DNA of 64,000 nucleotides from Chthoniobacterales bacterium (GTDB lineage Bacteria; Verrucomicrobiota; Verrucomicrobiia; Chthoniobacterales; UBA6821), in the NCBI GenBank assembly GCA_035287205.1, contig DATEBV010000367.1, forward strand, positions 3,869-67,868. The letters run 5' to 3'. A program made the position numbers and the translations under genes. The notes under the pieces are model-generated. The model saw only the letters and a program-made list of their open reading frames with translations, was not told the origin of the DNA and searched no databases. Below, piece by piece: positions 6,354 to 57,266 of the stretch. How positions within the stretch are numbered: position 1 is the stretch's first letter; each line of letters opens with the position of its first letter.

Positions 6354-6355
6354 AG
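6276..6355 (-). repeat. RE-2 copy (sense to the GT-C gene; supplies its ATG and the first 27 codons)
   Basis: Reverse complement reads ctATGcattgcattaacactactacatcgcagtcagatcatttggttcaaatccttcctccGAAggaagaaggatttgga. Confidence 0.85.
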
Positions 6356-8167: not shown

Positions 8168-8201
8168 ATGAGTTCAAACTGAATTCAGGCAATAGAAAGA
8201 A

Positions 8202-8247
8202 GGAAGAAAATAGCCACAAAAGAACACAAAAAAAACACAAAAGAAGA
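8202..8247. repeat. RE-5 solo left end
   Basis: ggaagaaaatagccacaaaagaacacaaaaaaaacacaaaagaag. Confidence 0.75.
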
Positions 8248-8250: not shown

Positions 8251-8383
8251 GTAAATATTCGGTTACACCATCGGTAAAATGTGCCAGCGAATCAACTAAT
8301 CATCAGAGTGATCTATCAAATCTTAATCAGTGTATCAACCTACAGCCTATAGCCTCTATTCGGCCTTTTTGTCGAATAGTTAC
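8251..8383 (+). mobile_element. RE-1S copy (5' end of the membrane-protein gene / intergenic)
   Basis: GTAAATATTCGG...GTCGAATAGTTAC. Homologous to 41270-41420. Directly follows RE-5 solo end 8202-8247. Confidence 0.8.
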
Positions 8384-10368: not shown

Positions 10369-10604
10369 TTTGTTCAGAAGCCGCCGAACAGATATTTTGG
10401 CCTTGTAGTCTGTAGTTTGTAGTCGATAGCCTATAATTCAGAACTCATCTCCGAAGGGGTGTGTGAAGGGTTATGTGACTTTTAGGTATTCAAATCCTTC
10501 CTGCTTCGGAGGAAACGACTTAGTCAGCAAATCGAATTTAAGTATTTACGATCAAATGAAGGTGCCGCATTGTTTGCGACCAAGGGCGGCAGCGTGCCTT
10601 GGTG

Positions 10605-10680
10605 CTATTAAACACATGATTACTTCGCTGCCCAATCATTTAATTCAGATCCATCCTCCGAAGGAGGGAGATCTGAATGC
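10605..10680 (+). repeat. RE-2 copy upstream of galE
   Basis: ctattaaacacatgattacttcgctgcccaatcatttaattcagatccatcctccGAAggagggagatctgaatgc. Confidence 0.8.
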
Positions 10681-10717
10681 CTACGAACTAAGAACTAAGA
10701 ACAGGCATTGTGCAACA

Positions 10718-11800
10718 ATGCCTATTATACTTGTTACGGGAGGTTCCGGGTACATTGGTTCCCATACGTGTATTGCTCTTGATAAGGCTGGTTATACACC
10801 TCTCATCCTCGATAATTTTAGCAATAGTAACGCATCGGTTCTTGATCGCATGGAAGTACTCATGAATCATCGGCCATTATTCATTAAAGGAGATGTGCGG
10901 GATGAGGCATTGCTAAAGAAAATTTTCCAAGAGCATGACTGTACTGGTGTAATTCATTTTGCGGGATTAAAGGCCGTAGGAGAATCGATTGCTCAACCAC
11001 TCGAATATTACGATGTGAATGTCACAGGATCGCTCTCACTGTTGATGGCTATGCAGTATTCTGGTGTCAAAAGGCTCATTTTTTCTTCTTCTGCTGCTGT
11101 CTATGGAAAACCTGAATCTCTCCCTATTAAGGAAAGTGCAACTCGATCGACGGTGAATCCCTACGGTCGTTCCAAACTGATGGTTGAAGATATTCTCGAA
11201 GATTTTTACTATGCAGATCCCTCTTGGAGTATTGCACGCCTTCGCTATTTCAATCCCATAGGAGCTCATCCAAGTGGACTCATTGGAGAAGCTCCTCAAG
11301 GAGTGCCTAACAATCTCATGCCTTACATTACCCAAGTTGCCGTTGGCCTTCGCGAGAAACTTTCTGTTTTTGGAGGAGATTATCCAACGCATGATGGCAG
11401 CGCGGTTCGTGATTATGTTCATGTGATGGATTTAGCGGAGGGACATGTTGCGGCACTCAATTGGTGTCAGAAAGGTTCTCAACAGTCAGGAGGGATGTTA
11501 ACTGTTAATTTAGGAACAGGAACTGGCTCTTCTGTTTTGGAAATAGTTCGAGCTTTTGAAATGGCCAGTGGGAAAAAAATTCCCTATGAAATAGTAGCTC
11601 GCCGTGCTGGAGATATTGCTGAGTGTTGGGCTGATTCTACTGATGCGGCTGAAATATTGCATTGGAAAGCCACACGCAGCCTGGAAGAAATGTGTAGAGA
11701 TAGTTGGCATTGGGAACAGCAGAAGAGAAAAGAGGAAATAGCCACAAAAGAACACAAAGAAACACAAAAAAGAAATTTGGCTATGAACTTGATTGATTAG
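10718..11800 (+). CDS. galE: UDP-glucose 4-epimerase
   Basis: 'ILVTGGSGYIGSH' Rossmann motif directly after M at 10718; 'YGRSKLMVE' is the YxxxK motif. ORF-track start 10463 only adds RE-2-derived sequence. The C-terminal about 22 codons (EEIATKEHKETQKRNLAMNLID) and the stop are encoded by RE-5 copy 11734-11965. Confidence 0.9.
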   Translation: MPIILVTGGSGYIGSHTCIALDKAGYTPLILDNFSNSNASVLDRMEVLMNHRPLFIKGDVRDEALLKKIFQEHDCTGVIHFAGLKAVGESIAQPLEYYDVNVTGSLSLLMAMQYSGVKRLIFSSSAAVYGKPESLPIKESATRSTVNPYGRSKLMVEDILEDFYYADPSWSIARLRYFNPIGAHPSGLIGEAPQGVPNNLMPYITQVAVGLREKLSVFGGDYPTHDGSAVRDYVHVMDLAEGHVAALNWCQKGSQQSGGMLTVNLGTGTGSSVLEIVRAFEMASGKKIPYEIVARRAGDIAECWADSTDAAEILHWKATRSLEEMCRDSWHWEQQKRKEEIATKEHKETQKRNLAMNLID

Positions 11801-28239: not shown

Positions 28240-29220
28240 ATGATTATTACACGATCGCCATTACGAATATCTCTTGGTGGAGGGGGAACCGATCTGCCTT
28301 CTTACTACACAGAACATGAAGGGTTTTTGATTGCAGGAGCTATTAATAAATATGTTTTTATAACTATTAATAAGACATTTACTCCTAAAATATTGCTTAA
28401 ATATTCTAAATTAGAATTGGTTCAAGAAGTGCATGAAATAGAACATCCCATTATTCGTGAAGCACTGCTATCTGTAGAAATAGAACATCCTTATTTAGAA
28501 ATTACTGCAATGGCTGATATTCCTGCAGGAACGGGGTTAGGATCTTCTGGGAGTTTTACCACAGCTTTACTGAAAGCATTGTATGCTCATCGTCGCCACC
28601 TTATGCAACCTCAAGAACTAGCGGAGTTAGCCTGTGATATTGAGATTAACCGGCTTGGAGAACCTATAGGAAAACAAGATCAATATATAGCCGCTTATGG
28701 AGGGCTTACATGCTTTACTTTTCATAAGGATCATCGAGTGACGGCAGAACCATTAAAAGTCTCTACGGAGACAACTTTTGATTTGGAAGATAATATATTA
28801 CTCTTTTTTACAGGGTATTCACGAAGCGCTAGTGGAATTCTTAAGGATCAAAATACCCGTACCAAGTCTAGTGATGATGAAATGTTAAAAAATCTCCATT
28901 TTGTCAAAGAGTTGGGTTATAGAAGTAAGGAGGCATTGGAATTGGGCAATACAACTCAATTTGGAGAGCTGATGCATGAGCATTGGGAGCATAAAAAAAC
29001 GCGTTCTGGAGGCATGTCTAATGCCAATATTGACCACTGGTATGAGGTAGGAATACAAAATGGGGCAGTAGGGGGTAAGCTTGTTGGAGCAGGGGGCGGA
29101 GGTTTTTTAATGTTCTATGCAAAAGATCGGACTAAATTACGGCATGCTATGAAAAAAGAAGGGTTGGAAGAAGTTCGGTTTGGCTTTGATTTTGAGGGTA
29201 CAAAAATTGTCCTTTCGTAA
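28240..29220 (+). CDS. hddA: GHMP sugar kinase, D-glycero-alpha-D-manno-heptose 7-phosphate kinase-like
   Basis: 'PAGTGLGSSGSFTTALL' is GHMP motif II and 'GAGGGGFLMF' is motif III. Adjacent to hddC, gmhA and gmhB homologues. Confidence 0.7.
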   Translation: MIITRSPLRISLGGGGTDLPSYYTEHEGFLIAGAINKYVFITINKTFTPKILLKYSKLELVQEVHEIEHPIIREALLSVEIEHPYLEITAMADIPAGTGLGSSGSFTTALLKALYAHRRHLMQPQELAELACDIEINRLGEPIGKQDQYIAAYGGLTCFTFHKDHRVTAEPLKVSTETTFDLEDNILLFFTGYSRSASGILKDQNTRTKSSDDEMLKNLHFVKELGYRSKEALELGNTTQFGELMHEHWEHKKTRSGGMSNANIDHWYEVGIQNGAVGGKLVGAGGGGFLMFYAKDRTKLRHAMKKEGLEEVRFGFDFEGTKIVLS

Positions 29221-29225
29221 TAAGC

Positions 29226-29281
29226 AGAAAAATAGCCACAAAAGAACACAAAGAAACACAAAAATCAGAACACAAAAAAAG
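29226..29281. repeat. RE-5 solo left end after hddA
   Basis: agaaaaatagccacaaaagaacacaaagaaacacaaaaatcagaacacaaaaaaag. Confidence 0.75.
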
Positions 29282-34536: not shown

Positions 34537-34791
34537 ATGGTTGCTAATTTATCAATAAGTATTAAAGAACTTCATGCTAAGACTGGAGCGCAAGTACGTC
34601 GAGTGAATAAGAGTCGAAGTCCGATTACAGTAACAGATCGAGGAAAGCCGATTGCTGTTTTGATAGCGCCGAATTTTATTGCAGCTAATCCTCGACATCG
34701 TACTTTACTCCCAGAATATGCTAAGCTGTTGTCAAGATCCTTATCCAACGATGTGCTTGATGATCTTGATGCCATTCGAGGAGATCGTTAA
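34537..34791 (+). CDS. Type II antitoxin, Phd/YefM-like (VapB-type partner)
   Basis: 'ISIKELHAKTGAQVRRV...PITVTDRGKPIAVLIAP' is a typical Phd/YefM N-terminus. Immediately precedes a PIN gene. ORF track uses TTG 34501. Confidence 0.6.
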   Translation: MVANLSISIKELHAKTGAQVRRVNKSRSPITVTDRGKPIAVLIAPNFIAANPRHRTLLPEYAKLLSRSLSNDVLDDLDAIRGDR

Positions 34792-34811
34792 ACCCGGTAT
34801 TTAAACCGCCC

Positions 34812-35246
34812 ATGTGTTTTTGTGATACATCTACCTTAGCAAAATATTATGTGCCGGAGAAGGAGTCATCATCGGTGCGCTTGCATCTTGATCAAGAAAA
34901 TCAGGTAATGGTTTCTGAACTTGCTCGTGTTGAGTTAATGGGAGTATTTCATCGGCGTTTGAGAGAACGCAAATGGAATAGGGATGAGTTTATGGCAGTT
35001 GTGCAGCAATTTTCTCATGATGATATTGAAGGACATTGGAGTTGGCTTCCTTTAGATGGAACTATTGTAGAGCAGGCTAGTAAGATTTTTATTGCATTGC
35101 CAGATAGTGTGTTTTTGCGAAGCTCCGACTGTCTTCATTTGGTAACGGCATTGTATTATCGAATTAAGGAAATCTATACTTATGATGCTCATCAAATTCA
35201 GGCTGCCTCTGTTCTGGGACTCAAGCCAATTTCAATTTCAGTGTAA
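34812..35246 (+). CDS. vapC: PIN-domain toxin (VapC-like)
   Basis: N-terminal 'CDTSTLAKYYVPE' carries the first acidic residue of PIN, with a later 'SSDCLHLVTA' motif. 144 aa and paired with the antitoxin. Confidence 0.65.
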   Translation: MCFCDTSTLAKYYVPEKESSSVRLHLDQENQVMVSELARVELMGVFHRRLRERKWNRDEFMAVVQQFSHDDIEGHWSWLPLDGTIVEQASKIFIALPDSVFLRSSDCLHLVTALYYRIKEIYTYDAHQIQAASVLGLKPISISV

Positions 35247-35318
35247 TAACCGACCTTTTCTTGACATTAGTAGGCCCTATCGCAGAGAGTAACAGGTCGC
35301 ATCGTAGTAAACTATTTT

Positions 35319-35390
35319 GCCGACGTAGCACAGTGGTAGTGCAGCTGATTCGTAATCAGCAGGTCAGGGGTTCGAATCCCCTCGTCGGCT
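35319..35390 (+). tRNA. tRNA-Thr (anticodon CGT)
   Basis: Manual cloverleaf: acceptor GCCGACG/CGTCGGC, D arm GCAC-AGTGGTA-GTGC, anticodon arm GCTGA-TTCGTAA-TCAGC, T arm AGGGG-TTCGAAT-CCCCT. No encoded CCA. Confidence 0.9.
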
Positions 35391-35430
35391 CATTTTTAAA
35401 AATTAAATTATTCGGGTTAGTTGTGTTAGC

Positions 35431-35568
35431 GTAAATATGCGGTTAACCCATTTGTAGAATGTGCTCCAATTTATCATCGGAACGATCCTTCAAATTTTAA
35501 CCAGCATACCGATTAACCTTCAGCCTTCAACTTTTAGCCTCTATTCGGCCTGTTGGCCGAATAGTTAC
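35431..35568 (+). mobile_element. RE-1S copy, 40 nt downstream of tRNA-Thr
   Basis: GTAAATATGCGG...CTATTCGGCCTGTTGGCCGAATAGTTAC. The flanking 8-mers gtgttagc and gtggtagt match at 6 of 8 positions. Confidence 0.85.
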
Positions 35569-35763: not shown

Positions 35764-36786
35764 ATGAAGAAGGCACTAATTACTGGTATAACAGGTCAAG
35801 ATGGTTCCTACCTTGCAGAGCTTCTGCTTGAAAAAGGCTATGAAGTTCATGGGGTCATACGACGCGCATCGACGTTTAATACAAGTCGTATCGATCATCT
35901 TTATAATGACCCTCATATTCATGGAACGCGGCTTTTTCTTCACTATGGTGATTTGGCCGATTCAGTGCAGATGGTAAAGTTGCTTTATAGTTTGAAGCCC
36001 GATGAGATTTATAATCTTGGGGCCCAGAGCCATGTTCGAGTCTCTTTTGATATTCCAGAATACACTGGCGATGTTACAGGATTAAGTACAGTGCGATTAT
36101 TAGAGGCGATTCGTGAGGCAGGTCTTGCGCAAGATGTCCGTTTTTATCAAGCTTCCTCATCAGAGATGTTTGGGCAAGTTCATGAAGTGCCGCAGCGGGA
36201 AACTACCCCTTTTCATCCTCGTTCTCCTTATGGTTGTGCGAAGGTTTTTGCTTACTGGCTCACAGTAAACTATCGTGAGGCTTACAATCTCCATGCTTCC
36301 AATGGAATTCTTTTTAATCATGAGAGTCCTCGTCGTGGAGAAACGTTTGTGACGCGAAAGATCACGCGTGCTGCCACAAGAATTAAGTTAGGACTTCAAG
36401 ATAAGCTTTTTCTTGGCAATCTCGATGCCCAGCGCGACTGGGGTTATGCAAAAGAATACGTGGAAGTGATGTGGTTGATGTTGCAACAGGATAAAGCAGA
36501 TGACTACGTTTGTGCAACAGGAGAGATGCATACGATTCGGGAGTTTTGTGAGGAATGCTTTGGATTGCTTGATTTAGATTGGAAGGAATATGTTGAGCAC
36601 GATAGTCGTTATGAACGTCCTAGTGAGGTAGAGCTCCTCATTGGAGATCCTTCTAAATTGAAACGTCAAATTGGTTGGGAACCAAAGGTAAAGTTTAAGG
36701 AGCTTGTTCGTATTATGACCGAAGCAGATCTTGAGTTAGCAGAACAGGATCTATTGCTTTGCAGTAAGATTAAGTTGAGAGTTTAA
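35764..36786 (+). CDS. gmd: GDP-mannose 4,6-dehydratase
   Basis: '[27 protein letters not shown]', '[10 protein letters not shown]' and 'NHESPRRG' are canonical Gmd. The ATG directly abuts RE-3 copy 35622-35763. Confidence 0.95.
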
Positions 36787-36837: not shown

Positions 36838-36883
36838 CTATCTTTAATTCGGTTGCAGCGAAGTGGCAACTGAATGACAATTT
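36838..36883 (+). promoter_or_regulatory. Conserved hairpin module upstream of TA cassette 1 (related to the RE-7 terminus)
   Basis: ctatctttaattcGGTTGCagcgaagtgGCAACtgaatgacaattt. The same module precedes all three antitoxin ATGs. Confidence 0.5.
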
Positions 36884-37060
36884 ATGATAATAGACCATCC
36901 CATTCCAACGTTAGTAGAAGAACCTGTAGAAACAAGTGACTCAATCTATACAGTTGAGTTGATAGCCGCTCTTGAGGAAGCAGATGCTGCAATTGATCGA
37001 GGAGAATTTGTGACTTTTGAGGAAATTAAGAAGGAATTTGCTTCATGGGTTACGAAATAG
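36884..37060 (+). CDS. Small antitoxin of ParE/RelE cassette 1 (58 aa; below the ORF-track cutoff)
   Basis: Manual translation: [58 protein letters not shown]. Paralog of 38739-38921 and 40034-40216. Overlaps the toxin start by 16 nt. Confidence 0.55.
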   Translation: MIIDHPIPTLVEEPVETSDSIYTVELIAALEEADAAIDRGEFVTFEEIKKEFASWVTK

Positions 37061-37347
37061 TTTTTTCTGCTCAAGCCCAGCATGATTTGAGAGAGATTGA
37101 ATATTATATTTCTTTTGATTCTCCTCAAGTAGCTAAGCGTTTTGGTCAGCAGTTGATTAAAAAGACAGATATGCTTGGCTTACATCCAGAAATAGGACGT
37201 ATAGTTCCTGAAGTTGGTAACCGTATTGTGCGAGAAATCATTGTTGGAAATTATCGTATTATGTACAGAGTGAATGTTTCAAAAAAGCAGGTTCGGATTT
37301 TGAGCTACTGGCATGCTGCTCGAGGTACTCCCGATGTCCGTTATTAA
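37045..37347 (+). CDS. ParE/RelE-family toxin (cassette 1)
   Basis: 100 aa. 'A..DL.EI..YI....P..A.RF' followed by '...GR.VPE......REI.VGNYRI.Y.V....V.IL...HAAR' fits the ParE/RelE pattern. Lies between gmd and fcl. Confidence 0.7.
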
Positions 37348-38293
37348 TCCTTCCTCGCGTATTTACATTGCAGGCCATCGCGGAATGGTTGGTTCTGCAC
37401 TCGTGCGTGCGTTTCATGCAAGAGGTTGTACCAATCTCATTCTGAAGACGCATCAGGAGTTAGATCTTTGTGATCAAGCTGCTGTTCAATCATTTTTTGA
37501 AAAGGAAAAACCGGAAGTTGTTGTGGTAGCTGCTGCACGTGTGGGAGGTATTCATGCTAATGCAACCTACCCTGCAGAGTTTATTCATGAGAATCTTGCG
37601 AGTGCTCATCATGTGATTCATGAGGCTTATACGCATGGAGTAGAACGTCTGCTTTTTCTTGGAAGCTCGTGCATCTATCCTAGGGAAGCACCTCAGCCGA
37701 TTAAAGAGGAGTATCTCCTTTCAGGCCCTCTGGAGCCAACGAATGAGGCTTATGCCATTGCAAAGATTGCGGGACTTAAGCTCTGTCAATTTTATCGTCA
37801 GCAGTATGGAGTTTTATTTCATTCTGCGATGCCGACAAATCTTTATGGTCCTGGTGATAATTATCATCCTGAAAATTCTCATGTGTTGCCGGCACTTATA
37901 CGTCGTTTTCATGAGGCTAAAGAAATAGCGGCTTCTTCAGTGAGCCTCTGGGGCACAGGGACAAGTCGACGTGAATTTCTTCATGTTGATGATCTTGCGT
38001 CAGCATTGCTTTTATTGCTTGAACAGGAGAATCCACTCGATTGGATCAATGTAGGCAGTGGTACCGATGTGACGATTCGTGAGTTGGCCGAACTCATCGC
38101 TCGTATCATCGGTTTTGAAGGAACACTGCAGTGGGATGCTACGCGTCCTGATGGAACTCCGCGCAAACTGATGGATAGTAATAAACTTTTTGGAATGGGC
38201 TGGCGTTCGCAGTTTGATCTCGAAATGGGAATACGTCATGCCTATGACGATTTTTTGCGATCTTTAGAAAGTGGAATTTTAAGGAAGAATTAA
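37334..38293 (+). CDS. fcl: GDP-L-fucose synthase (GDP-4-keto-6-deoxymannose epimerase/reductase)
   Basis: '[14 protein letters not shown]' and '[10 protein letters not shown]' are canonical Fcl. ATG 37334 lies inside the last 14 nt of the toxin gene. The last codons and stop fall in RE-5-like sequence (38283-38350). Confidence 0.9.
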
Positions 38294-38350
38294 CCACAAA
38301 AAGCAGAGAAGAAATTAACCACAAAGAACACAAAGGAACACAAAAGAAGA
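38283..38350. repeat. RE-5-like solo left end (duplicated) covering the fcl stop
   Basis: ggaagaatTAAccacaaaaagcagagaagaaattaaccacaaagaacacaaaggaacacaaaagaag. Confidence 0.7.
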
Positions 38351-38477
38351 AGTAAAAAGTGAAAGGGTATTTTTAGAATTTTGGTCCGAGGTTGGGTTGA
38401 TTTTTTATGTGCGGTGTTATTTTATTTGAACATAATCGATGATCTAATTGTCTTATTTCAGGAAGACAATGGTAGAA

Positions 38478-38676
38478 GTAAATATTCGATTAACCCAGTC
38501 GATAAAATTTGTCTAGCCGTGTAAGAATCCTTTACTGAAGTGATTTCGAGAGCAAAAAACTAGGTGCAAATAAAAATGTCGCTTCACTTTTTACATTGTT
38601 ACGAAGTGACCAAAAATCAACTTAAACTTAAACTGAAAACTTAAACTTATATTCGGCCTGTTGGCCGAATATTTAC
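38478..38676 (+). mobile_element. RE-1L full-length copy with a perfect 8-bp TSD
   Basis: 199 nt. TIR GTAAATATTCG / CGAATATTTAC. TSD TGGTAGAA at 38470-38477 and 38677-38684. The paralogous site near 39971-39990 is empty. Confidence 0.92.
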
Positions 38677-38689
38677 TGGTAGAATAAAA

Positions 38690-38738
38690 AACCTGATTTT
38701 ATTTAAGTTGCTGCGTAGTGGCAACTGAACGCCTATTT
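38690..38738 (+). promoter_or_regulatory. Conserved hairpin module upstream of TA cassette 2
   Basis: acctgattttatttaAGTTGCtgcgtagtgGCAACTgaacgcctattt. Confidence 0.5.
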
Positions 38739-38921
38739 ATGATTACTGACCCATTAGTAGAAGAATTAGTAGAAGACCCTACAGAACTAAGCAGACGCGA
38801 TCCTGCTTATCGAGCTGCATTTATTGCAGCAGTTGAAGAAGGGTTAGCATCAATCGAACAAGGGAAATGTATCACTCTTGAAGAAATGGAGAAAAAATTC
38901 TATTCATGGTTTACCGAGTAG
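38739..38921 (+). CDS. Small antitoxin of ParE/RelE cassette 2
   Basis: MITDPLVEELVEDPTELSRRDPAYRAAFIAAVEEGLASIEQGKCITLEEMEKKFYSWFTE. C-terminal 'A.EEGL....G..I..EE' is ParD-like. Overlaps the toxin start. Confidence 0.55.
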   Translation: MITDPLVEELVEDPTELSRRDPAYRAAFIAAVEEGLASIEQGKCITLEEMEKKFYSWFTE

Positions 38922-39208
38922 TTATTTCTCCTGAAGCTCAGCGTGATCTAAGAGGTATTCAGCGCTATATTTCTTTTGATGCGCCTCAGGCAGCTCTACG
39001 CTTTACTCAACACCTTTTTTCTAAGCAAAAAGTTCTTGAAGCACATCCTGAAATAGGTCGTGTTGTCCCTGAAATTGCCAATTGCACCCTACGAGAGATC
39101 ATTATTGGAAACTATCGAGTGATTTATAAGGTCGATCATTCGGGAAAAGAAATTATAATTCTTCGATATTGGCATGCTGCTCGAGGTGTTCCAGAATTTC
39201 GTTATTAA
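38906..39208 (+). CDS. ParE/RelE-family toxin (cassette 2, intact)
   Basis: 100 aa, alignable over its full length with 37045-37347, roughly half the positions identical by eye. Confidence 0.7.
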   Translation: MVYRVVISPEAQRDLRGIQRYISFDAPQAALRFTQHLFSKQKVLEAHPEIGRVVPEIANCTLREIIIGNYRVIYKVDHSGKEIIILRYWHAARGVPEFRY

Positions 39209-39222
39209 CCACCCATATATTC

Positions 39223-39813
39223 ATGAATAAATCATTACTCTTTGCACTCATCCTCATGACTGCTGCTTCTTGTCTTACACAGGCAAGTCCAAGTCAACAA
39301 AGTCTTGTTCCTTCAAATATCAGTACCTACGAGCAAGTAAACACTGCTCCAGCAGAAGTCATCCAGCCATTAGAAATCACTATTGATGATTTAGTGAATA
39401 CCCCATGGGATGAAGCAAGTCCTAAAGCGCACGTTCCATGGTATTCTTATGAAGATTTCAATGGAGCGCAAATTTTAGAGCCCCTATCAATTACCTTAGA
39501 GAAAGGCCAAGACCTTATTATTCATATTAGCAATTCTAAGCATGTTAAAGGAGGCTATCTACCTCAACATGGGTTTTATATAGATGAGAGAGGACTCATC
39601 TATACTATCAATGAAATCGACTGGGGAAGGGGACATAGTCTTAATGCAGACCCTTACTTTCCATGCCGTGATGAGCAAGGTATGCTCTCTTATCATGTGA
39701 TTAACAGTCATTCAGGGAAAAACGATTTAACGTTTAAATATTGTCTTTCTGGTTCTGACAGAAGCGGCGATAGCAAAGTCAATGTTAAGAAAATATTTGT
39801 GACATGCGAATAA
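39223..39813 (+). CDS. Secreted hypothetical protein (paralog A)
   Basis: Signal peptide MNKSLLFALILMTAASCLTQA/SP. Shares 'ITLEKGQDLIIHISN' and the signal peptide with 40388-41014. ORF-track start 39169 overlaps the toxin. Confidence 0.5.
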   Translation: MNKSLLFALILMTAASCLTQASPSQQSLVPSNISTYEQVNTAPAEVIQPLEITIDDLVNTPWDEASPKAHVPWYSYEDFNGAQILEPLSITLEKGQDLIIHISNSKHVKGGYLPQHGFYIDERGLIYTINEIDWGRGHSLNADPYFPCRDEQGMLSYHVINSHSGKNDLTFKYCLSGSDRSGDSKVNVKKIFVTCE

Positions 39814-39984
39814 TGTAGTTGTCTAGCCAGCGAGAAGAGCAGGAATTAACTGCAAAATAACACAAAGGATTTTTTTTGAAATCTTGATCCAAGATTGGGT
39901 TTGATCTTGTTACACAGTGGACTATTTTATTTTGAACGTAATTGATGATCCAATTGTCTTACTTAAAGAAAGACTATGATAAAA

Positions 39985-40033
39985 AATCTTATTTTATTTC
40001 AGTTGCCGCCTGACGACAACTGAACACCTATTT
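39985..40033 (+). promoter_or_regulatory. Conserved hairpin module upstream of TA cassette 3
   Basis: aatcttattttatttcAGTTGccgcctgacgaCAACTgaacacctattt. Confidence 0.5.
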
Positions 40034-40216
40034 ATGATAACTGACCACTCCATCTCAACGTTAGTAGAAGATCCTGCAGAACTAAGCAGACGTGATCCGG
40101 CTTGTCGGGCTGCATTTATTGCGGCGGTTGAAGAAGGGCTGGCTGATTTTGAACGAGGAGATTTTATCACTCATGAAGAACTTAAAAAAGAATTCTATTC
40201 ATGGTGTACCGAATAG
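40034..40216 (+). CDS. Small antitoxin of ParE/RelE cassette 3
   Basis: MITDHSISTLVEDPAELSRRDPACRAAFIAAVEEGLADFERGDFITHEELKKEFYSWCTE. Close paralog of the cassette-2 antitoxin, with most positions identical by eye. Confidence 0.5.
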   Translation: MITDHSISTLVEDPAELSRRDPACRAAFIAAVEEGLADFERGDFITHEELKKEFYSWCTE

Positions 40217-40364
40217 TTATTGCTTCAAGAGCTAAACGTGATTTATACGAGAGATTGTTGTTGGAAATTATCGAGTAATTTACAAAGTGGATCATTCCAG
40301 AAAAGAGATTAGAATTCTTCACTATTGGCACGCTGCACGAGGCACTCCAGATTTTCATTATTAA
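40201..40364 (+). pseudogene. ParE/RelE toxin pseudogene (cassette 3; 139-nt internal deletion and frameshift)
   Basis: Both ends align with 38906-39208 (atggtgtaccgaatagtt... and ...cactattggcacgctgcacgaggcactccagattttcattattaa). It is 164 nt versus 303 nt, and the reading frame stops at 40276-40278. Confidence 0.75.
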
Positions 40365-40387
40365 CCCTCAACACATAACCAAGCTCC

Positions 40388-41014
40388 ATGACTAAATCAT
40401 TACTCTTTGCAGTCATCCTCATGACTGCTGCTTTATCTTTTACACAGGCAACTCCGAGTCAGCAAAAAACTATTGCTTCCCCTATCGTCGCTTATACTCA
40501 AACGGATACTGCTTTAACAGAAGCCATTCCTCCGTATGAAATGACGTTTACAGTAGAAGAGCTTTTTTTTGGTCCAGGGTTCTCCATCACTTTAGAAAAA
40601 GGCCAGGATCTTATTATTCATATTAGTAATCCTGATAACATATGGCACAATGCAGGTAAATTTTCCGAAAACCGTGGCTGCATGGGTGGACTGTATATTG
40701 CCAATTGTGATAATAACATTGCGATCCATACTCATTCTCGGGCTCGTGCTGATATTTCTTGCAAGATGATGGGAATTAATTGGGGAGGATATTATAATTT
40801 TTTCAGGCAAAGAGACCCTCTCTCTTTAGATGAAAAACTCGATGAGGATGGAAGTGTTCTCTCTTATTATTTTAAGAATAATCATGAGGGTAAAGAACAA
40901 CTGCAATTTCATTTTCATTGGATCCCTGCAGGCAACAGTTCAAGAGACAGTTTTAACGCAGAAGTGGCATCTGGAGTAGCAGATTCAAGAATTATTAATG
41001 TAACAGTTCAGTAA
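40388..41014 (+). CDS. Secreted hypothetical protein (paralog B)
   Basis: Signal peptide MTKSLLFAVILMTAALSFTQA/TP. Shares 'ITLEKGQDLIIHISN' with paralog A. Confidence 0.5.
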   Translation: MTKSLLFAVILMTAALSFTQATPSQQKTIASPIVAYTQTDTALTEAIPPYEMTFTVEELFFGPGFSITLEKGQDLIIHISNPDNIWHNAGKFSENRGCMGGLYIANCDNNIAIHTHSRARADISCKMMGINWGGYYNFFRQRDPLSLDEKLDEDGSVLSYYFKNNHEGKEQLQFHFHWIPAGNSSRDSFNAEVASGVADSRIINVTVQ

Positions 41015-41150
41015 TAACTTGCTCTGGTTGATTCATGATTTGTCGAATAGTTGTAATTTTCTCAGCATTATTTTCCCAAATGGGTATATTTGGTCTATGG
41101 TGATTCAGTTAGCAATTTCAAGCGCTCCTCATAACAAACTCTCTTTGTCC

Positions 41151-41457
41151 GTAAATATTTGACAGCCCTAATCAGAAAATTTTGTTGAAGTTCTTTATTA
41201 AAGTGACCTTGAAAGCAAAAAGTTGGGAGGAAGGAAAAATATCGCTTTGCTTCTCTCCTTGTCACGAAGGTAAATATTCGGTTAACCCATCAGTAAAATG
41301 TGCTAGAGAATCAATTAATTATCAGAGCGATCTATCAAATCTTAATCAGCGTATCGATTAGCCTACAGCCTATAGCCTACAGCCTATAGCCTCTATTCGG
41401 CCAGCAGGCCGAATAGTTACTCACGAAGTGACCAAAAATCAACTTAAACTTAAACTC
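41151..41457 (+). mobile_element. RE-1L copy interrupted by RE-1S (composite)
   Basis: Starts gtaaatatttgac. It is interrupted at 41269/41421 and resumes tgaccaaaaatcaacttaaacttaaac. It lacks its own terminal hairpin. Confidence 0.75.
41270..41420 (+). mobile_element. RE-1S copy nested inside an RE-1L copy, with a perfect 8-bp TSD
   Basis: 151 nt. Flanked by TCACGAAG (41262-41269) and TCACGAAG (41421-41428). It splits the RE-1L motif gtcacgaagtgacc. Confidence 0.9.
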
Positions 41458-42916: not shown

Positions 42917-44742
42917 CTTACTGTCGCAGCCTTTATCATTATGAGCGGCGCCTTTCTCGCGTTGTAACTGTTGGTGATCTCAAGATGGGTGGAGATGAAC
43001 CAATACGGGTTCAATCGATGTTGACTTCTGACACGATGGATACAGAAGCGTGTGTTCGTGAGACTTTAGGTTTAGTTGCTGTGGGGTGTGAAATAGTTCG
43101 TATCACAGCACCTACAGTGAAGGATGCAGCTAACTTAAAAAATATTCATGAGGCCTTGCGTGCCGTAGGCTGTGAGGTACCGCTGGTGGCTGATATTCAT
43201 TTTAAGCCTGATGCAGCTTTGGAAGCGGCTCAATGGGTGGAGAAGGTTCGCATTAATCCTGGTAATTTTGCGGACTCCAAGAAGTTTCATGTTCGTGAGT
43301 ATAGCGATATTGAATATGAAACGGAGCTGGAAAGGATTCGAGATCGATTCGCTCCGTTAGTACACCTTTGCAAGGAGCGAGGTGTGGCGATGAGAATTGG
43401 AACGAATCACGGTTCGCTTAGTGACCGTATCATGAATCGTTTTGGAGATTCACCGCGAGGAATGGTAGAAAGTGCTTTAGAGTTTGCTCATATTGCTCGG
43501 GATCTTGATTATCATGAATTTGTTTTTTCCATGAAGGCTTCTAATCCGAAGGTAATGATTGAGGCTTATCGATTGTTGATAGCTCGTCTTGAAGCAGAAG
43601 GATCTGATTGGAATTATCCCATTCATCTTGGCGTGACCGAGGCTGGGGATGGAGAAGATGGACGTATTAAAAGTGCTATTGGTATTGGTTCACTTCTTGC
43701 CGATGGTATTGGCGATACGGTTCGGGTTTCACTCACGGAAGATAGCGAGAGAGAGATTCCCGTAGCGCAGGCACTAGTTAGAAGATGGCAGGGAGAAAAT
43801 GGAAGTCAGGATGCAGATTACAGGGAGCAGGTTGCAGGGAATTCATCTCGTGCCGCCGCCGCATGTCCTACCTGGCCTCTTTTTAGTTATGAACGGCGTA
43901 CTTCTGAATCTCTTTGTTTACAAGGAGTGAACCTAGGTGGAGAAGAGCCAATCCGTGTTGTTGTGTTACGTGAGACATATCAAGCAGTTGCTCCTAAATT
44001 GGCATCCATGGGAGAGTATCAACCAGAGCTTATTGAAGAGGATCTTCCCATTAAAGAAATTGATCCTTCTTCTGATGCTGAGGTAGCCGCCATGAATGCC
44101 GAAGAAAGCCCTACTCTTGTTACAGTAAGGGATGGTACGGCAATGTCGCCGATTGCAGCCTTTCGCATGTTAGCAGCACGTCTTGCAGCAAGGCATCCTA
44201 TTTTACTCAAAGATACATTAGACTTCTTTCGAAACCCTACTGGTGCCGCGAATTGTGACGTCGCGTCGGTGTTGGAGCAGAATTCTACTAATAATCTGCT
44301 TGCTTCAGCGACTACTATTGGTTCGTTGCTTTGTGATGGTATTGGAGATGCCATTATGATTCGTAGAGAGAAGGCGCCAGGCGCTTCGTTGCGTCTTGCT
44401 TATAATATTCTTCAAGCGGCAGGCACACGGATTTTTAAAACCGATTATGTAGCATGTCCTTCGTGTGGGAGAACGCTTTTTAATCTTCAGAACACAACCG
44501 CTCGTATTAAGGCTGCTACAGGACATCTCAAAGGAGTTCGTCTTGCAGTAATGGGGTGTATTGTTAATGGTCCCGGAGAAATGGCCGATGCCGATTTCGG
44601 TTATGTCGGAGGGGCCCCAGGTAAAATCAATCTCTATGTCGGAAAGAAGCCTATAAAATTTAATATTCCGGAAGCAGAGGCTGTAGAACAACTTGTTCAA
44701 CTCATCCGTGAGCATGGTAAATGGGTTGACGCAGTAGTTTGA
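42913..44742 (+). CDS. ispG: 4-hydroxy-3-methylbut-2-en-1-yl diphosphate synthase, long form with inserted domain
   Basis: 'IRVQSM', 'VADIHF', 'RINPGN' and the Fe-S cysteines 'ACPSCGRT' and 'GCIVNGPGE'. 609 aa. A half RE-3 copy lies in frame at 44226-44280 within the insert domain. Confidence 0.9.
   Translation: MTYCRSLYHYERRLSRVVTVGDLKMGGDEPIRVQSMLTSDTMDTEACVRETLGLVAVGCEIVRITAPTVKDAANLKNIHEALRAVGCEVPLVADIHFKPDAALEAAQWVEKVRINPGNFADSKKFHVREYSDIEYETELERIRDRFAPLVHLCKERGVAMRIGTNHGSLSDRIMNRFGDSPRGMVESALEFAHIARDLDYHEFVFSMKASNPKVMIEAYRLLIARLEAEGSDWNYPIHLGVTEAGDGEDGRIKSAIGIGSLLADGIGDTVRVSLTEDSEREIPVAQALVRRWQGENGSQDADYREQVAGNSSRAAAACPTWPLFSYERRTSESLCLQGVNLGGEEPIRVVVLRETYQAVAPKLASMGEYQPELIEEDLPIKEIDPSSDAEVAAMNAEESPTLVTVRDGTAMSPIAAFRMLAARLAARHPILLKDTLDFFRNPTGAANCDVASVLEQNSTNNLLASATTIGSLLCDGIGDAIMIRREKAPGASLRLAYNILQAAGTRIFKTDYVACPSCGRTLFNLQNTTARIKAATGHLKGVRLAVMGCIVNGPGEMADADFGYVGGAPGKINLYVGKKPIKFNIPEAEAVEQLVQLIREHGKWVDAVV
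44226..44280 (-). repeat. RE-3 half copy, in frame in ispG
   Basis: ctttcgaaaccctactggtgccgcgaattgtgacgtcgcgtcggtgttggagcag aligns with the left half of 52456-52587. Encodes FRNPTGAANCDVASVLEQ. Confidence 0.65.
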
Positions 44743-44747
44743 AAACA

Positions 44748-44800
44748 GGAATAGCCACAAAAGAACACAAAGAAACACAAAAAAACAGAACACAAAAAAG
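44748..44800. repeat. RE-5 solo left end, 5 nt after the ispG stop
   Basis: ggaatagccacaaaagaacacaaagaaacacaaaaaaacagaacacaaaaaag. Confidence 0.75.
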
Positions 44801-44802
44801 GA

Positions 44803-44880
44803 GTAAAAATCCGGCTAATCCAGTTAATAAAATTTGTCTAAATATACTGGAATCTTTTGCTGCAGCGACTGAGAAGGCAT
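44803..44880 (+). mobile_element. RE-1L, 5' part only
   Basis: gtaaaaatccggctaatccagttaataaaatttgtctaaa aligns with the 5' part of 38478-38676. Confidence 0.55.
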
Positions 44881-49053: not shown

Positions 49054-49321
49054 GAAATTCACCACACCAGTCATTCAGTCCTCGCTACGCAACGACTGAA
49101 GTAAAGGTGACAGTTTGTTTTAGTATGTTTACTTAACTGATAGTTGAACAATTAGTAGTAAGGAGGGTGAAGAATTTTTATAGCGTTCTCAGTAACTTAA
49201 TTGAACTTAATTGAAAGCTATTTTTTGATTTTTTTTCAGGAAAGACAACGATAAAAACAAAAACCTTATTTTACTTCAGTCGCTGCGCAGCAGAGACTGA
49301 ATGACTGGTGTGGTGAATTTC
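49054..49321. repeat. RE-7: 268-nt element with inverted termini of about 55 nt
   Basis: GAAATTCACCACACCAGTCATTCAGTCCTCGCTACGCAACGACTGAAGTAAAGG ... CCTTATTTTACTTCAGTCGCTGCGCAGCAGAGACTGAATGACTGGTGTGGTGAATTTC. Confidence 0.85.
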
Positions 49322-49432
49322 TGCGTATTTGAGGAACGTTATCAGTCACAAAACTAGCACTAATTATCGGGTAGATATTGCTATGGTTTTTACCACCCCT
49401 CCCTTTACCTTTCACTCTTTACTTCTTCTTTC

Positions 49433-51093: not shown

Positions 51094-51199
51094 GCGTTCA
51101 GATCTGAGGTGCAGACAATCTTTATAAATTGAAGGCTTGGTATAGTGCCAGAATGATTCCATCCCAATGTTATTTTTAGCTGTAAACACAAATAAAAAG

Positions 51200-51257
51200 C
51201 CTTATTTTACTTCAGTCGCTGCGCAGCAGGGACTGAATGCCTAATGTGGTGAATTTC
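51200..51257 (+). repeat. RE-7 solo right end, just upstream of the AddB-like gene
   Basis: ccttattttacttcagtcgctgcgcagcagggactgaatgcctaatgtggtgaatttc. Confidence 0.8.
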
Positions 51258-51280
51258 TTTTTGCTTGATGCTTGCTAGCA

Positions 51281-54505: not shown

Positions 54506-54515
54506 GCAAGAAGAA

Positions 54516-54750
54516 GGAAGAAAATAGCCACAAAAGAACACAAAGAAACACAAAAAGAAACTTGGCGATGAACTAGATTAATTAGCTAGCCTAAGCTGTT
54601 TTGCTGCTATTAACGCTCTATATTGAAGCAGGATTTCAATTCCTGGCCTCATTGATTTTCATAATATTGAACATTCTTTATCTTTAATTTTTATAAAAAT
54701 TCTTTTTTTTATTTTTGCTTCTTTGTGTTCTTTTGTGGCTATTTTCTTCC
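54516..54750. repeat. RE-5 full-length copy (AddB-like to GH spacer)
   Basis: GGAAGAAAATAGCCACAAAAGAACACAAAGAAACACAAAAAG ... TTCTTTTGTGGCTATTTTCTTCC. Confidence 0.85.
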
Positions 54751-57266
54751 GGCAATTACTTCATTTCAGTTTGAATTTATATCAACGCTCATTACTCGTC
54801 TGGCCATTCCTTGTGGTTGTTTTCTGCTATTTGCTAATTCCCTCACAAGTACTAGCTCTCAACGGTAGTAAATATTCGGTAAACTCATCTGTAGAATGTG
54901 CTCCAACGAATCAGCAGAGTTCTTCTAATTGTGCCTGCAGCAACAGCTCTCCACTTCCATCTCCTGTCGCAGCGACGACATCTCCCACCTCTCACCTACC
55001 ACCTACCACCTCTATTAGGCCTGTTGGTCGAATAGTGACAGGCATTGTCACTATTGATCTCGATCATCCGAAGGCAATTTTGGATGCTTCTCAAACTCTT
55101 GGTGCAGGAATTGATGGGCATAAAGAGGGAGAGGGGGAAACAATTTTTTCATTAGCCAATATTCGCCGTATGCGTTCAGCTGGTTTAAAACCACTTGCTT
55201 ACCGCCTTCGGACTGAATTAGGGGTGGAAGCATGGCATTGGAATCCTCAAGGAACTTGGAGTGATCCTTCTCACCAGCAAGGGTATTGGCTCTCATCGAT
55301 TCATTCTAAAAAACCACTTCTTGAAAGTTATGGTTATCGACTACCTCGTCGCGGAGATACTCTTGACGAAGCTAATAACGATGGCTATTCACGACTTGAT
55401 GATGGTAACTCTAAGACTTTTTGGAAAAGCAATCCTTACCTTACTTCTCATTATACAGGAGAACCTGATAGGAAACATCCCCAGTGGGTGGTGCTCGATT
55501 TTGGAAAGCCTGTTTTTATTAATGCGGTCCGTCTTCATTGGAGAGAACCCTACGCAAAAAAATTTCGTATTCAATTTGCCAATGAAGGAGCTGTTTACTT
55601 TGGGCATCATCGTCCTTGGCATGATTTTCCTCAGGGAAAAAGAGAGCAAGGTCATGGAGGAGAAGAATTGCTTTCTTTAGGAGAGGTCAAGAAATTCGGG
55701 AAAAGAATACCTATTCGTTTTCTTCGCGTTCTGATGACAGAGAGTTCAGCAACAGCTCCTCCTTCGTGTCACGACCCACGCGACATGATGGGATATGCTA
55801 TCCAAGAAATTGAAGCAGGAGAAATAACTCGCGACGGAGTTTTTCATGATCATGTCATTCATCGTCCTGATAACCAGCAGACGCTCGTTTATGTTTCATC
55901 AACGGATCCATGGCATCGTGCCTCAGATAGGGATGAAAAAACCGAGCAACCAGGTTTTGATTTAATTGTTTCTTCTCGTCTTGCAGAAAAAAATGCCATC
56001 CTTTGGTCACTTCCAGTATTGTATGATACTCCGGAAAATAGTGCTGCTGCAGTACGATTCTTGCAACAACGCGGATATCTCTCTCAAGGAGTGTCAAAAT
56101 TAGAACCTGTTTTAAAAGTCGCTGAGGCTGATGAAGGGCGAGGAGTCGGCGGCGCGCAGAAGTTGAGTGTACAGCAGCTACTCGATGCTTCGAGCACCGG
56201 CGCGACGAAGCCATTCGCAGCTGCAGTAGACTTTGAAAACAGGTTCTTAGAACTTGGTGAAGAACCCGATGGGCAGCGCATAGATCCTAATGACTTTGGA
56301 GCTCTCTACTGTCAAACAGCACGACTTATTCGTAAGATAGATCCTTCAATTTCTTTAGGAGGTCCTAGTTTTGTCACCATTGATTGCCAACCAAACGATA
56401 CCACCTACCGCTTTGATCATCGTTCTTGGCTTCAGCGATTTTTCAAACAACTTCGAAAAAAAAATCAAAAGAAAGACTTTCAGTTTCTTACTTTTGAGTG
56501 GTATCCCTTCGACGATATTTGCCTTGATCCAGCGTCCTTACTTACTCAAGAACCGCTCCAACTTCAGCAAGCCGTTAAGCGAATTCGTCGTGGAGGAGTT
56601 CCTCCCTCCATGCCACTCATGATTACCGAGTATGGGTATTCTGTCTTTGAAGGACAACCTGAGGTGGAGCTTGCAGCAGCACTACTCAATACGGATATTA
56701 GTGCTCAATTTCTCTTATTAGGAGGAAAGACTTCTTATCTTTATGGGTATGAACCAAATTCTTTAGCCTGCCTTTATGGGAATTCTTGGGGAAACCTGAT
56801 GATGTTTCTTCAGAATAAAAGAGGAGGAATCAAAGCCTCTCTTCCTACTTATTATGCTGCACGTCTCTTAACTCAAGAGTGGATGGCTCCTTTAGCAGGA
56901 ACTCATCAAATCTATCCAACAGTAACAAATCTCAAAGACAAGAAGGGAAGATCTTTGGTAACAGCCTATACCCTTCAGCGTCCAGATCATCAGTGGTCAC
57001 TTCTAATCGTCAATAAAAGCCCTGATCAAGCTTGTTGTATTCAATGTCATTTTCTACATGCTGATCGAAAAGTTCCTAGTCCATGGAAAAGTCCTAGGGA
57101 TCTTTATTCCTATTCTCCAGTTCAATACCAATGGCATGTTGATGGACCGCATGGGCATCCTTCTCGCAATCGAGAGCCAGCTCACTCTTCGCTCAAAGAA
57201 GAAGATCCAATAATAATACTTCCATGGTCTATTACGGTCATTCTATTCGGGCAACAGGCCGAATAG
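54723..57266 (+). CDS. Secreted discoidin (F5/8 type C)-domain protein with C-terminal TIM-barrel glycoside-hydrolase-like region
   Basis: 'FWKSNPY...PQWVVLDFGKPVFINAVRLHW' is discoidin-like. 'LELGEEPDG', 'FEWYPF' and 'MITEYGYS' resemble GH clan-A acid/base and nucleophile strands. TTG start lies inside RE-5 copy 54516-54750. In-frame RE-1V (54868-55039) and RE-3 (56102-56247). The TAG stop lies inside an RE-1L terminal hairpin. Confidence 0.55.
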   Translation: MCSFVAIFFRQLLHFSLNLYQRSLLVWPFLVVVFCYLLIPSQVLALNGSKYSVNSSVECAPTNQQSSSNCACSNSSPLPSPVAATTSPTSHLPPTTSIRPVGRIVTGIVTIDLDHPKAILDASQTLGAGIDGHKEGEGETIFSLANIRRMRSAGLKPLAYRLRTELGVEAWHWNPQGTWSDPSHQQGYWLSSIHSKKPLLESYGYRLPRRGDTLDEANNDGYSRLDDGNSKTFWKSNPYLTSHYTGEPDRKHPQWVVLDFGKPVFINAVRLHWREPYAKKFRIQFANEGAVYFGHHRPWHDFPQGKREQGHGGEELLSLGEVKKFGKRIPIRFLRVLMTESSATAPPSCHDPRDMMGYAIQEIEAGEITRDGVFHDHVIHRPDNQQTLVYVSSTDPWHRASDRDEKTEQPGFDLIVSSRLAEKNAILWSLPVLYDTPENSAAAVRFLQQRGYLSQGVSKLEPVLKVAEADEGRGVGGAQKLSVQQLLDASSTGATKPFAAAVDFENRFLELGEEPDGQRIDPNDFGALYCQTARLIRKIDPSISLGGPSFVTIDCQPNDTTYRFDHRSWLQRFFKQLRKKNQKKDFQFLTFEWYPFDDICLDPASLLTQEPLQLQQAVKRIRRGGVPPSMPLMITEYGYSVFEGQPEVELAAALLNTDISAQFLLLGGKTSYLYGYEPNSLACLYGNSWGNLMMFLQNKRGGIKASLPTYYAARLLTQEWMAPLAGTHQIYPTVTNLKDKKGRSLVTAYTLQRPDHQWSLLIVNKSPDQACCIQCHFLHADRKVPSPWKSPRDLYSYSPVQYQWHVDGPHGHPSRNREPAHSSLKEEDPIIILPWSITVILFGQQAE
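54868..55039 (+). mobile_element. RE-1V (172-nt variant), in frame inside the discoidin/GH gene
   Basis: GTAAATATTCGG...CTATTAGGCCTGTTGGTCGAATAGTGAC. Encodes KYSVNSSVECAPTNQQSSSNCACSNSSPLPSPVAATTSPTSHLPPTTSIRPVGRIV. Confidence 0.85.
56102..56247 (+). repeat. RE-3 long variant, in frame in the discoidin/GH gene
   Basis: Termini AGAACCTGTTTTAAAAGTC / GACTTTGAAAACAGGTTCT. Encodes EPVLKVAEADEGRGVGGAQKLSVQQLLDASSTGATKPFAAAVDFENRF. Confidence 0.85.

Follow-up and report, generated by a model that had tools for sequence, protein, structure and literature searches.

The locus described here lies in a 64,000-nt stretch of DNA from a Chthoniobacterales bacterium (contig DATEBV010000367.1, positions 3,869 to 67,868; hereafter the window) and raises the question of why three ParE/RelE-type toxin-antitoxin (TA) cassettes sit in and beside the GDP-fucose genes gmd and fcl, two of them followed by a gene for a predicted secreted protein (S). 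What appeared to be a fresh TA insertion with cargo is documented by comparison with related loci as a set of long-term, vertically kept TA cassettes in a sugar-nucleotide operon. We consider it likely that these clade-specific cassettes, each built on a ParE-like toxin and a mini-antitoxin, are kept by addiction together with physical fusion to the expression signals of fcl, that their subtypes turn over by recombination and erode toxin-first, and that the S genes are accessory genes which share a variable spot with the cassettes. Coordinates are positions within the window, on the + strand unless given otherwise, and the comparison loci are numbered contigs from metagenomes or metagenome-assembled genomes (MAGs), L004-L028. 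The genes that carry the argument are the following.

35764-36786, +: gmd (GDP-mannose 4,6-dehydratase; PF16363, E 1e-144), the left flank of the cassette 1 slot
36838-36883, +: cassette 1 leader, of a kind common to all three cassettes, with the inverted repeat CGGTTGC (36850-36856)/GCAACTG (36866-36872), which ends 11 nt 5' of the AT1 ATG
36884-37060, +: AT1, a 58-aa mini-antitoxin of subtype C, overlapping T1 by 16 nt
37045-37347, +: T1, an intact 100-aa ParE/RelE-fold toxin (PF05016, 62.7 bits, E 4.9e-17; TIGR02385, 28.1 bits)
37322-37347, +: the T1/fcl junction, with a 14-nt overlap and GAGG 8 nt 5' of the fcl ATG (37334)
37334-38293, +: fcl (GDP-L-fucose synthase; PF01370, E 7e-65)
38739-38921, +: AT2, a 60-aa mini-antitoxin of subtype A, overlapping T2 by 16 nt
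38906-39208, +: T2, an intact 100-aa ParE/RelE-fold toxin (PF05016, 67.4 bits, E 1.7e-18)
40034-40216, +: AT3, an intact 60-aa antitoxin of subtype B without a working toxin (bootstrap 100 with the antitoxins that precede rseP in L009 and L014)
40201-40364, +: T3, a toxin remnant (139-nt gap in the unit alignment; two tblastn fragments)

The three cassettes had been recognised as ParE/RelE-type in an initial annotation, and this identification was confirmed: T1 and T2 scored above the gathering cut-off of the Pfam hidden Markov model (HMM) PF05016 (23 bits), which makes them members of the ParE/RelE superfamily, and each toxin has a partner gene on its 5' side. Against the NCBIfam model TIGR02385 (RelE/StbE), the toxins reached 28.1 and 35.7 bits, just above the cut-off of 27.9 bits, while the best PDB match of T2 was a ParE (6x0a_A, E 1.8e-7), followed by a RelE/StbE toxin (7etr_C, E 1.8e-4). 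Judged by these matches, the toxins appear to have the ParE/RelE fold and are probably ParE-like; their most likely activity is presumably that of a gyrase poison, an assumption we make from knowledge of the family. In all three window cassettes the antitoxin gene lies 5' of the toxin gene, co-oriented with it and overlapping it by 16 nt, and the same antitoxin-upstream, overlapping architecture was found throughout the survey of about 18 cassettes from 12 loci. These modules have the architecture that defines a type II TA system. The intact toxins are under purifying selection (ratio of nonsynonymous to synonymous substitution rates, dN/dS, 0.14-0.32), with a dN/dS of 0.26 between T1 and the L021 toxin and of 0.14-0.16 between T2 and the toxins of L013 and L018, to which it is 76-77% identical.

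The HMM check proposed with the initial annotation was positive for the toxins (PF05016) and negative for the antitoxins. Searched as single sequences, the antitoxins had no Pfam or PDB match; no antitoxin model passed its cut-off, and they do not qualify as members of RelB/ParD with its N-terminal ribbon-helix-helix domain. Below the cut-offs, AT2 scored 16.4 bits against the RelB/ParD model NF050811 (cut-off 60 bits), with its residues 28-54 on profile positions 56-82 of 83, and antitoxin residues 28-54 also aligned to residues 51-75 of the 79-aa CopG-type ParD 6xrw_B (E 0.038) and to residues 62-84 of the 89-aa RelB 9g12_C; a weak PF27535 (RelB3_C) label fell on the antitoxin paralogue P0013. 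Three sub-threshold signals agree in placing a toxin-binding tail after only ~27-29 residues, and this N-terminal part appears too short for a ribbon-helix-helix domain. The family of these antitoxins is narrow, with 13 of 5.8 billion clusters and 5 loci in 185,579 species genomes. Within the window, AT2 and AT3 are 72% identical and AT1 and AT2 47%, and the three antitoxins differ most in their toxin-binding C-terminal half.

The cassettes resemble the type II ParDE systems (RK2 ParDE; Mesorhizobium ParDE, PDB 6X0A; CopG-type ParD, PDB 6XRW) in the PF05016 toxin, the upstream overlapping antitoxin gene and the ParD/RelB-like tail, but differ in the antitoxin of 58-66 aa, which has ~27-29 residues where a ribbon-helix-helix domain would take up about 50. 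An antitoxin that neutralises ParE although it lacks a DNA-binding domain has been described (PMC8630535): paaA2-parE2 of the E. coli O157:H7 prophage CP-933P also combines a ParE with a short antitoxin that lacks such a domain (here, is predicted to lack it) and is likewise embedded in a foreign transcription unit, on which it depends. In contrast to paaA2-parE2, the window cassettes have no paaR2-like third regulator, and their host unit is a sugar-nucleotide operon and not a prophage immunity region; no sequence similarity between PaaA2 and the cassette antitoxins was detected. The three paralogous cassettes are real but ordinary in kind, and they do not constitute a new type of system.

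What is unusual is where cassette 1 sits. It does separate gmd from fcl, as first annotated, but it is not newly wedged between them: each of the six related lineages recovered has a cassette of the family between these two genes (the window; L009-L011, from groundwater metagenomes; L013; L018, a Lac Pavin Verrucomicrobiia MAG; L021, a Chthoniobacterales MAG; and L027). The window Gmd is 86-93% identical to the Gmd of L009, L013, L018, L021 and L027, and the window Fcl is 73-83% identical to its orthologues; for L009 alone, identity to the window was 91% for Gmd, 81% for Fcl, 75% for RseP and 70% for GcpE. In five of the six lineages the fcl start codon lies within the last 14 nt of the toxin gene, whose end reads ...CGA GGN NNN CC(C/T) (G/A)AT GTC (C/G)(G/A)N TA(T/C) TAA, with the fcl ATG inside (G/A)ATGTC (in T1, within the Asp-Val codons of the toxin) and the GAGG 8 nt 5' of it contributed by the invariant toxin Arg(CGA)-Gly codons. 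The encoded toxin tail P[DN]V[RD]Y and the GATGTC...TAA junction are shared by five of the six fcl-adjacent toxins across subtypes A, C, E and F and are found in none of the other toxins; away from fcl, the tails read PEFRY (T2 of the window), PEI (L019_1), PEL (L020) and PKIASY (L026). No other canonical start was found 5' of the conserved Fcl motif, an extra in-frame ATG at 37313 not being kept in relatives, and the terminator scan gave no terminator-like site between gmd and fcl outside the open reading frames (ORFs). The presence of the cassette in all six lineages, together with the shared overlap with fcl, argues that the insertion of cassette 1 is ancient and that the cassette is embedded in the operon. 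Both the clade-wide occupancy of gmd|fcl and the retention of the toxin/fcl overlap across subtypes are unusual.

The last 25 nt of the toxin gene would supply both the Shine-Dalgarno sequence (GAGG) and the start codon of fcl, which would be transcribed and translated through the cassette, and deletion of the cassette would then cost the cell antitoxin cover as well as fcl expression. TA pairs commonly stand alone between core genes and are re-acquired at the same spots (PMC13617665). The TA islets of Photorhabdus described there share with the present cassettes their isolated position between conserved genes, the presence of different systems at one spot in different genomes, the frequency of toxin-only pseudogenes and palindromes near ParE/RelE cassettes; here, in contrast, the slot is filled in every lineage recovered, by one family, and the 3' end of the toxin is fused with the beginning of the housekeeping gene that follows. 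It is a tentative possibility that this amounts to an 'operon-entrenched' TA, in which the 3' end of the module is fused to the ribosome-binding site and start of fcl, a host that deletes the cassette loses GDP-fucose synthesis, and older subtypes give way to new ones by recombination in which the junction is retained and orphan antitoxins are left. This would be a mode of persistence undescribed for type II systems, possibly tying the expression of glycans and surface proteins to TA activity.

An alternative explanation, partly compatible with the favoured one, is that the cassettes were co-opted and serve mainly to provide the next gene (fcl, S, rseP or a HAD hydrolase) with a promoter and with translational coupling, which would tie fucose-glycan and surface-protein output to TA transcription and to stress-dependent turnover of the antitoxin. 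It draws on the GAGG in the toxin codons and on the toxin stop, which overlaps or abuts the next gene (an overlap of 14 nt with fcl and of ATGA with the L020 HAD gene, and gaps of 8-23 nt to S genes). It also draws on a TTGAY-N17-TAG box that is conserved in relatives directly after gmd, 7-10 nt before the antitoxin ATG, and whose sequence suggests a cassette promoter with a near-leaderless mRNA. However, the window cassettes lack the TTGAY/TAG boxes and have a different leader, the inverted repeat before the antitoxin ATG being specific to the window genome. This leader (GAAAGACAAYGATAAAAA..TTATTTTAYTTCAGTYGC-N9-GRSACTGAA; cf. 38685-38738 and 39965-40033) recurs at 49240-49322 and 51190-51258, and since it lies there 5' of two unrelated ORFs it is a dispersed element that resembles a promoter or leader and not an operator specific to the antitoxin. 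Cassettes with a dead toxin moreover still precede S2, rseP (in L014) and fcl (in L027), so the toxin protein is dispensable for downstream expression, and autoregulation by an antitoxin seemingly without a DNA-binding domain is doubtful. On balance we regard this co-option as rather doubtful.

The favoured explanation also includes an exchange of cassettes at the slot. The neighbour-joining tree of the antitoxins (TA and antitoxin trees were built on 60-100 residues, with bootstrap) separated at least six subtypes with bootstrap values of 72-100. At gmd|fcl the window carries subtype C, L013, L018 and L027 carry A, L009 carries F and L021 carries E; AT1 groups with an orphan antitoxin of L018. 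AT2 clusters with the type A antitoxins of L013 and L018 (bootstrap 83), and AT3 with the type B antitoxins preceding rseP in L009 and L014 (bootstrap 100; dN/dS 0.06 against these). We infer that the cassette body at gmd|fcl was replaced among at least four subtypes with the junction kept; the exchange may have occurred by recombination within the conserved YWHAARG-coding stretch, with older cassettes remaining as orphan antitoxins. A second slot lies just 5' of rseP, where L009 and L014/15 carry a type B cassette in the order antitoxin-toxin-rseP. Between fcl and rseP, L009 (4177-4596) and L018 (7455-7889) have a gene for a 139-aa Host_attach protein (PF10116), which is absent from the window, where S genes and cassettes take this place. 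The cassettes would accordingly be long-term residents of the gmd|fcl and fcl|rseP gaps in low-GC Verrucomicrobia (Chthoniobacterales-like). The fcl|rseP gap would be a variable spot, holding in relatives a type B cassette, the Host_attach gene and/or an array of fast-evolving secreted S proteins with a predicted beta-sandwich, and in the window a type A and a type B cassette interleaved with two S genes. The GC content of the TA/S stretch (0.35-0.39) is lower than that of the flanks (0.42-0.47), as expected for accessory genes.

Other members of the TA family repeatedly sit in glycan gene clusters. L019, from a Lac Pavin Verrucomicrobiia MAG, has three family cassettes within 12 kb (2794-3263, 5953-6440 and 10491-10975) among Gmd-like and Fcl-like sugar-nucleotide genes. 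The toxin stop in L020 (5962-6437) overlaps the start of a HAD-type hydrolase gene (ATGA), and in L019_1 the HAD start lies 5 nt 3' of the toxin stop.

Directly after fcl come two units, each with a leader, an antitoxin, a toxin or its remnant and an S gene. In addition to the cassette genes given above, they contain the following features.

38294-38738, +: unit 1 leader, homologous to the unit 2 leader, with CACAAAG-type repeats (38294-38350) and the inverted repeat AGTTGC (38706-38711)/GCAACT (38721-38726)
38477-38676, no strand: an insertion of 200 bp resembling a miniature inverted-repeat transposable element (MITE), called 'RE-1L' at first, with terminal inverted repeats and an 8-bp duplication
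39223-39813, +: S1, a predicted 196-aa secreted protein (signal peptide by eye)
39860-40033, +: unit 2 leader, with the inverted repeat CAGTTG (40000-40005)/CAACTG (40017-40022) and an empty MITE site, from the alignment with unit 1
40388-41014, +: S2, a predicted 208-aa secreted paralogue of S1 (36% identical, E 5e-25)

The two units had been interpreted as a tandem duplication, one copy of which decayed. Their colinearity was borne out over the leader, antitoxin, toxin and S signal peptide, and without the MITE the two leaders share 71% identity over 171 nt (39860-40033 in unit 2). A simple duplication followed by decay does not fit, since the cassettes belong to different subtypes (A and B) whose closer relatives lie elsewhere (the bootstrap values of 83 and 100 above) and their synonymous divergence is high: dS was 0.73 between AT2 and AT3 and 0.48-0.63 between T2 and the fragments of T3, and S1 and S2 share 36% identity. 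With different subtypes and a dS of 0.5-0.7, the units are not a fresh duplicate. Identities are also distributed as a mosaic, in which the N-terminal half of the antitoxin and the 3' end of the toxin are closest within the genome, while the C-terminal half of the unit 2 antitoxin and the 5' end of its toxin are 93-94% identical to L014. These segment identities point to recombination or gene conversion among cassettes, and the colinearity would go back to an old duplication, to gene conversion between the adjacent units, or to both.

The insertion in the unit 1 leader proved to be MITE-like. It has terminal inverted repeats of 11 nt (GTAAATATTCG/CGAATATTTAC) and lies between the two copies of an 8-bp direct repeat (TGGTAGAA; 38469-38476 and 38677-38684); the empty site is found in unit 2. 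With the inverted repeat, the target duplication, the empty site and at least eight copies in the window, 38477-38676 is a MITE by the usual marks of such elements. MITE-like copies lie at 1020-1170, 4427-4608, 8251-8383, 19864-20014, 35431-35568, 38477-38676, 41270-41420 and 54868-55039; the family, which comprises long as well as short subfamilies, is marked by terminal inverted repeats GTAAATATTCGG...CCGAATAGTTAC and by a hairpin, TATTCGGCC-TGT-TGGCCGAATA, in its interior.

The decayed toxin of unit 2 beside its intact antitoxin was likewise confirmed. The window sequence, including the 139-nt deletion, was found in three assemblies of one sample set, namely an NCBI MAG, an ENA re-assembly and a Logan contig; the NCBI copy is contig MIDR01000113.1 of 'Verrucomicrobia bacterium RIFCSPHIGHO2_12_FULL_41_10' (GCA_001830205.1, groundwater). 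Relative to T2, T3 has a single gap of 139 columns (alignment columns 668-806), which places the deletion at about 40244/40245, after the first 15 codons; the frame ends after 25 codons (stop 40276-40278), and 39 C-terminal codons, 77% identical to T2, are out of frame. Between the remnant and T2, dN/dS is 0.20, a value that indicates constraint until recently and hence a recent inactivation; the 139-nt deletion would thus have put a type B toxin out of action not long ago. An inactivated toxin beside an intact antitoxin ORF was seen in five cases, and none of the cassettes compared showed the reverse state, a dead antitoxin with an intact toxin. Toxin loss took these forms.

Window, unit 2: 139-nt deletion
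L014/15: 17-nt deletion
L027: nonsense mutation at codon 56
L018 and L009, type C orphans 5' of the resident cassette: deletion at the same junction, ATGGTGTACAGAAAAAACAGA
L017 (MIDR01000018.1 of the same MAG as the window), 6001-6186: lone 61-aa antitoxin of subtype D

The L017 orphan carries a weak PF27535 (RelB3_C) label and has no toxin remnant; trmD is 65 nt away, and a MazE/PIN pair is close by.

The retention of AT3 had been taken as a sign of anti-addiction. This claim is unsupported, since the pattern is indistinguishable from toxin-first erosion, which recurs in the family and is the documented norm: in TA erosion, toxin-only or double pseudogenisation dominates (PMC13617665). AT3 would persist since antitoxin loss is tolerated only after toxin loss, an order from which toxin-first decay follows and which requires neither a benefit to the cell nor anti-addiction. 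An anti-addiction role of AT3 is possible; the fact that the antitoxins differ most in their toxin-binding half argues against broad cross-protection.

The remaining question is what the S genes contribute. Both proteins begin with classic Sec signal peptides (MNKSLLFALILMTAASCLTQA/SP in S1 and MTKSLLFAVILMTAALSFTQA/TP in S2), as judged by eye from the sequence without a predictor, and neither had a Pfam, NCBIfam or PDB sequence match. The family is tiny: a word-indexed search gave 4 matches, and an exhaustive HMM scan of 1.84 billion proteins gave 20 representatives. An AlphaFold (AF2) model built from 16 sequences was an all-beta sandwich (predicted local distance difference test score, pLDDT, 64; predicted template-modelling score, pTM, 0.60), for which Foldseek gave weak matches to Pfs230 6-Cys domains and to chagasin/ICP inhibitors (E about 1e-3; template-modelling score, TM, 0.2-0.5). 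The predicted sandwich is what S has in common with the chagasin/ICP inhibitors (MEROPS I42), with matches to PbICP-C (3pnr_B, E 9e-4), EhICP2 and chagasin; the differences are a TM of 0.2-0.5, an identity of 8-14%, an equally good match to Pfs230 6-Cys and the moderate pLDDT of 64, and none of 16 S family members matched Pfam I42. From this model the chagasin/ICP likeness is a lead and not an assignment. The N-terminal 52 aa of S1 and S2 are 56% identical and the rest 27%, and among S paralogue pairs in general the N-terminal 50-65 residues are 56-89% identical and the mature domain 27-58%. In the tandem S genes of the window (39223-41014), L027 and L024, where the signal peptide is nearly identical as well, this pattern suggests that the 5' end undergoes gene conversion or that a protein at the surface or outside the cell is under diversifying selection. 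In L025 (85-4029), a distant S homologue (P0033) adjoins recA and lies near a gene for a type III secretion chaperone of the CesT type, after which comes a 501-aa ORF; this context hints at a host-associated lifestyle for some S carriers.

Across about 15 S genes with context, the constant linkage between TA pair and secreted cargo that had been proposed broke down. The nearest relative, L027, has three tandem S genes directly after fcl with no cassette between (2629-4557); L024 (617-3101) has one clear S flanked by two distant S-like genes, and L008 two tandem S genes, both without a cassette; L004, L025 and L028 each have a single S and no cassette. Elsewhere, cassettes precede fcl, rseP or a HAD hydrolase. 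The adjacency outside the window that remains is that of L026, where a type F toxin and its antitoxin are followed by S after a gap of 8 nt. In sum, S follows 3 of about 18 cassettes, and of about 15 S genes 12 lack a cassette immediately 5' of them. Among the TA operons that have a third gene are toxin-antitoxin-chaperone operons of the higBA-secB type and mazEF-mazG; with these third genes S shares a position closely 3' of the TA pair, but it differs in being secreted, in not being conserved together with the pair and in occurring mostly without it. A three-component TA operon with S as its conserved third gene was accordingly rejected as a description, as co-occurrence fails across loci.

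For the same reasons it is unlikely that antitoxin, toxin and secreted protein form a functional three-gene unit that was duplicated in tandem, with S as TA-stabilised cargo and AT3 selected for anti-addiction. The colinearity of the units down to the 171-nt leader, the third cassette-S adjacency in L026, the intact ORF and leader of AT3 and the recurrence of orphan antitoxins all suit such a unit. Against it stand the S arrays and single S genes without cassettes, the different genes that follow cassettes elsewhere, and the TA pairs themselves, which differ in subtype and in the toxin-binding half, so that cross-neutralisation is not expected. Furthermore, the available sequence of the window genome contains no intact type B toxin, and the T3 deletion is so recent that the retention of AT3 says little on selection. 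Phage defence by abortive infection, with TA islets in a variable spot by surface-glycan genes and a subtype diversity born of an arms race, would account for the many subtypes and their fast turnover at fixed slots, for the lower GC content and for the wide reports of antiphage TA systems (PMC13617665), but is improbable to much the same degree, as the Pfam labels of the immediate neighbourhood include no other defence gene (the PADLOC library was not scanned), frequent toxin loss speaks against strong current selection, and the conserved overlap with fcl is left unexplained.

Several observations weigh against the favoured explanation, that of long-resident cassettes held by addiction and by their fusion to fcl. 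In L027 the fcl ATG lies 4 nt 3' of the toxin stop, without overlap, and the promoter and terminator scans performed no better than chance. The missing DNA-binding domain is deduced from antitoxin length and sub-threshold alignments, and the sequences compared are MAG or metagenome contigs throughout. The dS between AT2 and AT3 (0.73) is lower than that between AT3 and its orthologues (about 1.6), so recombination or a bias in composition could account for part of the subtype tree. Finally, cassette-S adjacency, which involves 3 of the roughly 15 S genes and 3 of the roughly 18 cassettes, is above random placement, and some real association exists, through a shared variable spot or an ancestral unit. 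The loci nevertheless form a natural series that begins with intact cassettes, continues with toxins disrupted by a nonsense mutation or by deletions small and large, and ends with orphan antitoxins; this series bears on the persistence of chromosomal TA systems, on selection on orphan antitoxins and on the reliance of antitoxins without a DNA-binding domain on a host operon.

Other features of the window concern its wider setting. A fourth TA pair, of another family, lies 5' of gmd (34537-35391), with a Phd/YefM antitoxin at 34537-34791 and a PIN toxin at 34812-35246, followed by a tRNA-Thr(CGT) at 35319-35391 and a MITE copy. At 61588-62997 there are four copies of a ~300-nt repeat with 67-83% identity and start-to-start spacings of 384, 342 and 384 nt. 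Short repeats of the type CCACAAA(A)GAACACAAAG occur directly 3' of stop codons on both strands at no fewer than 16 sites in the window (e.g., 8197-8245, 11725-11773, 29219-29267, 38302-38350, 44738-44806 and 54511-54559) and also in L027 at about 2500-2540; these repeats may mark the ends of genes in this lineage or bind a protein.

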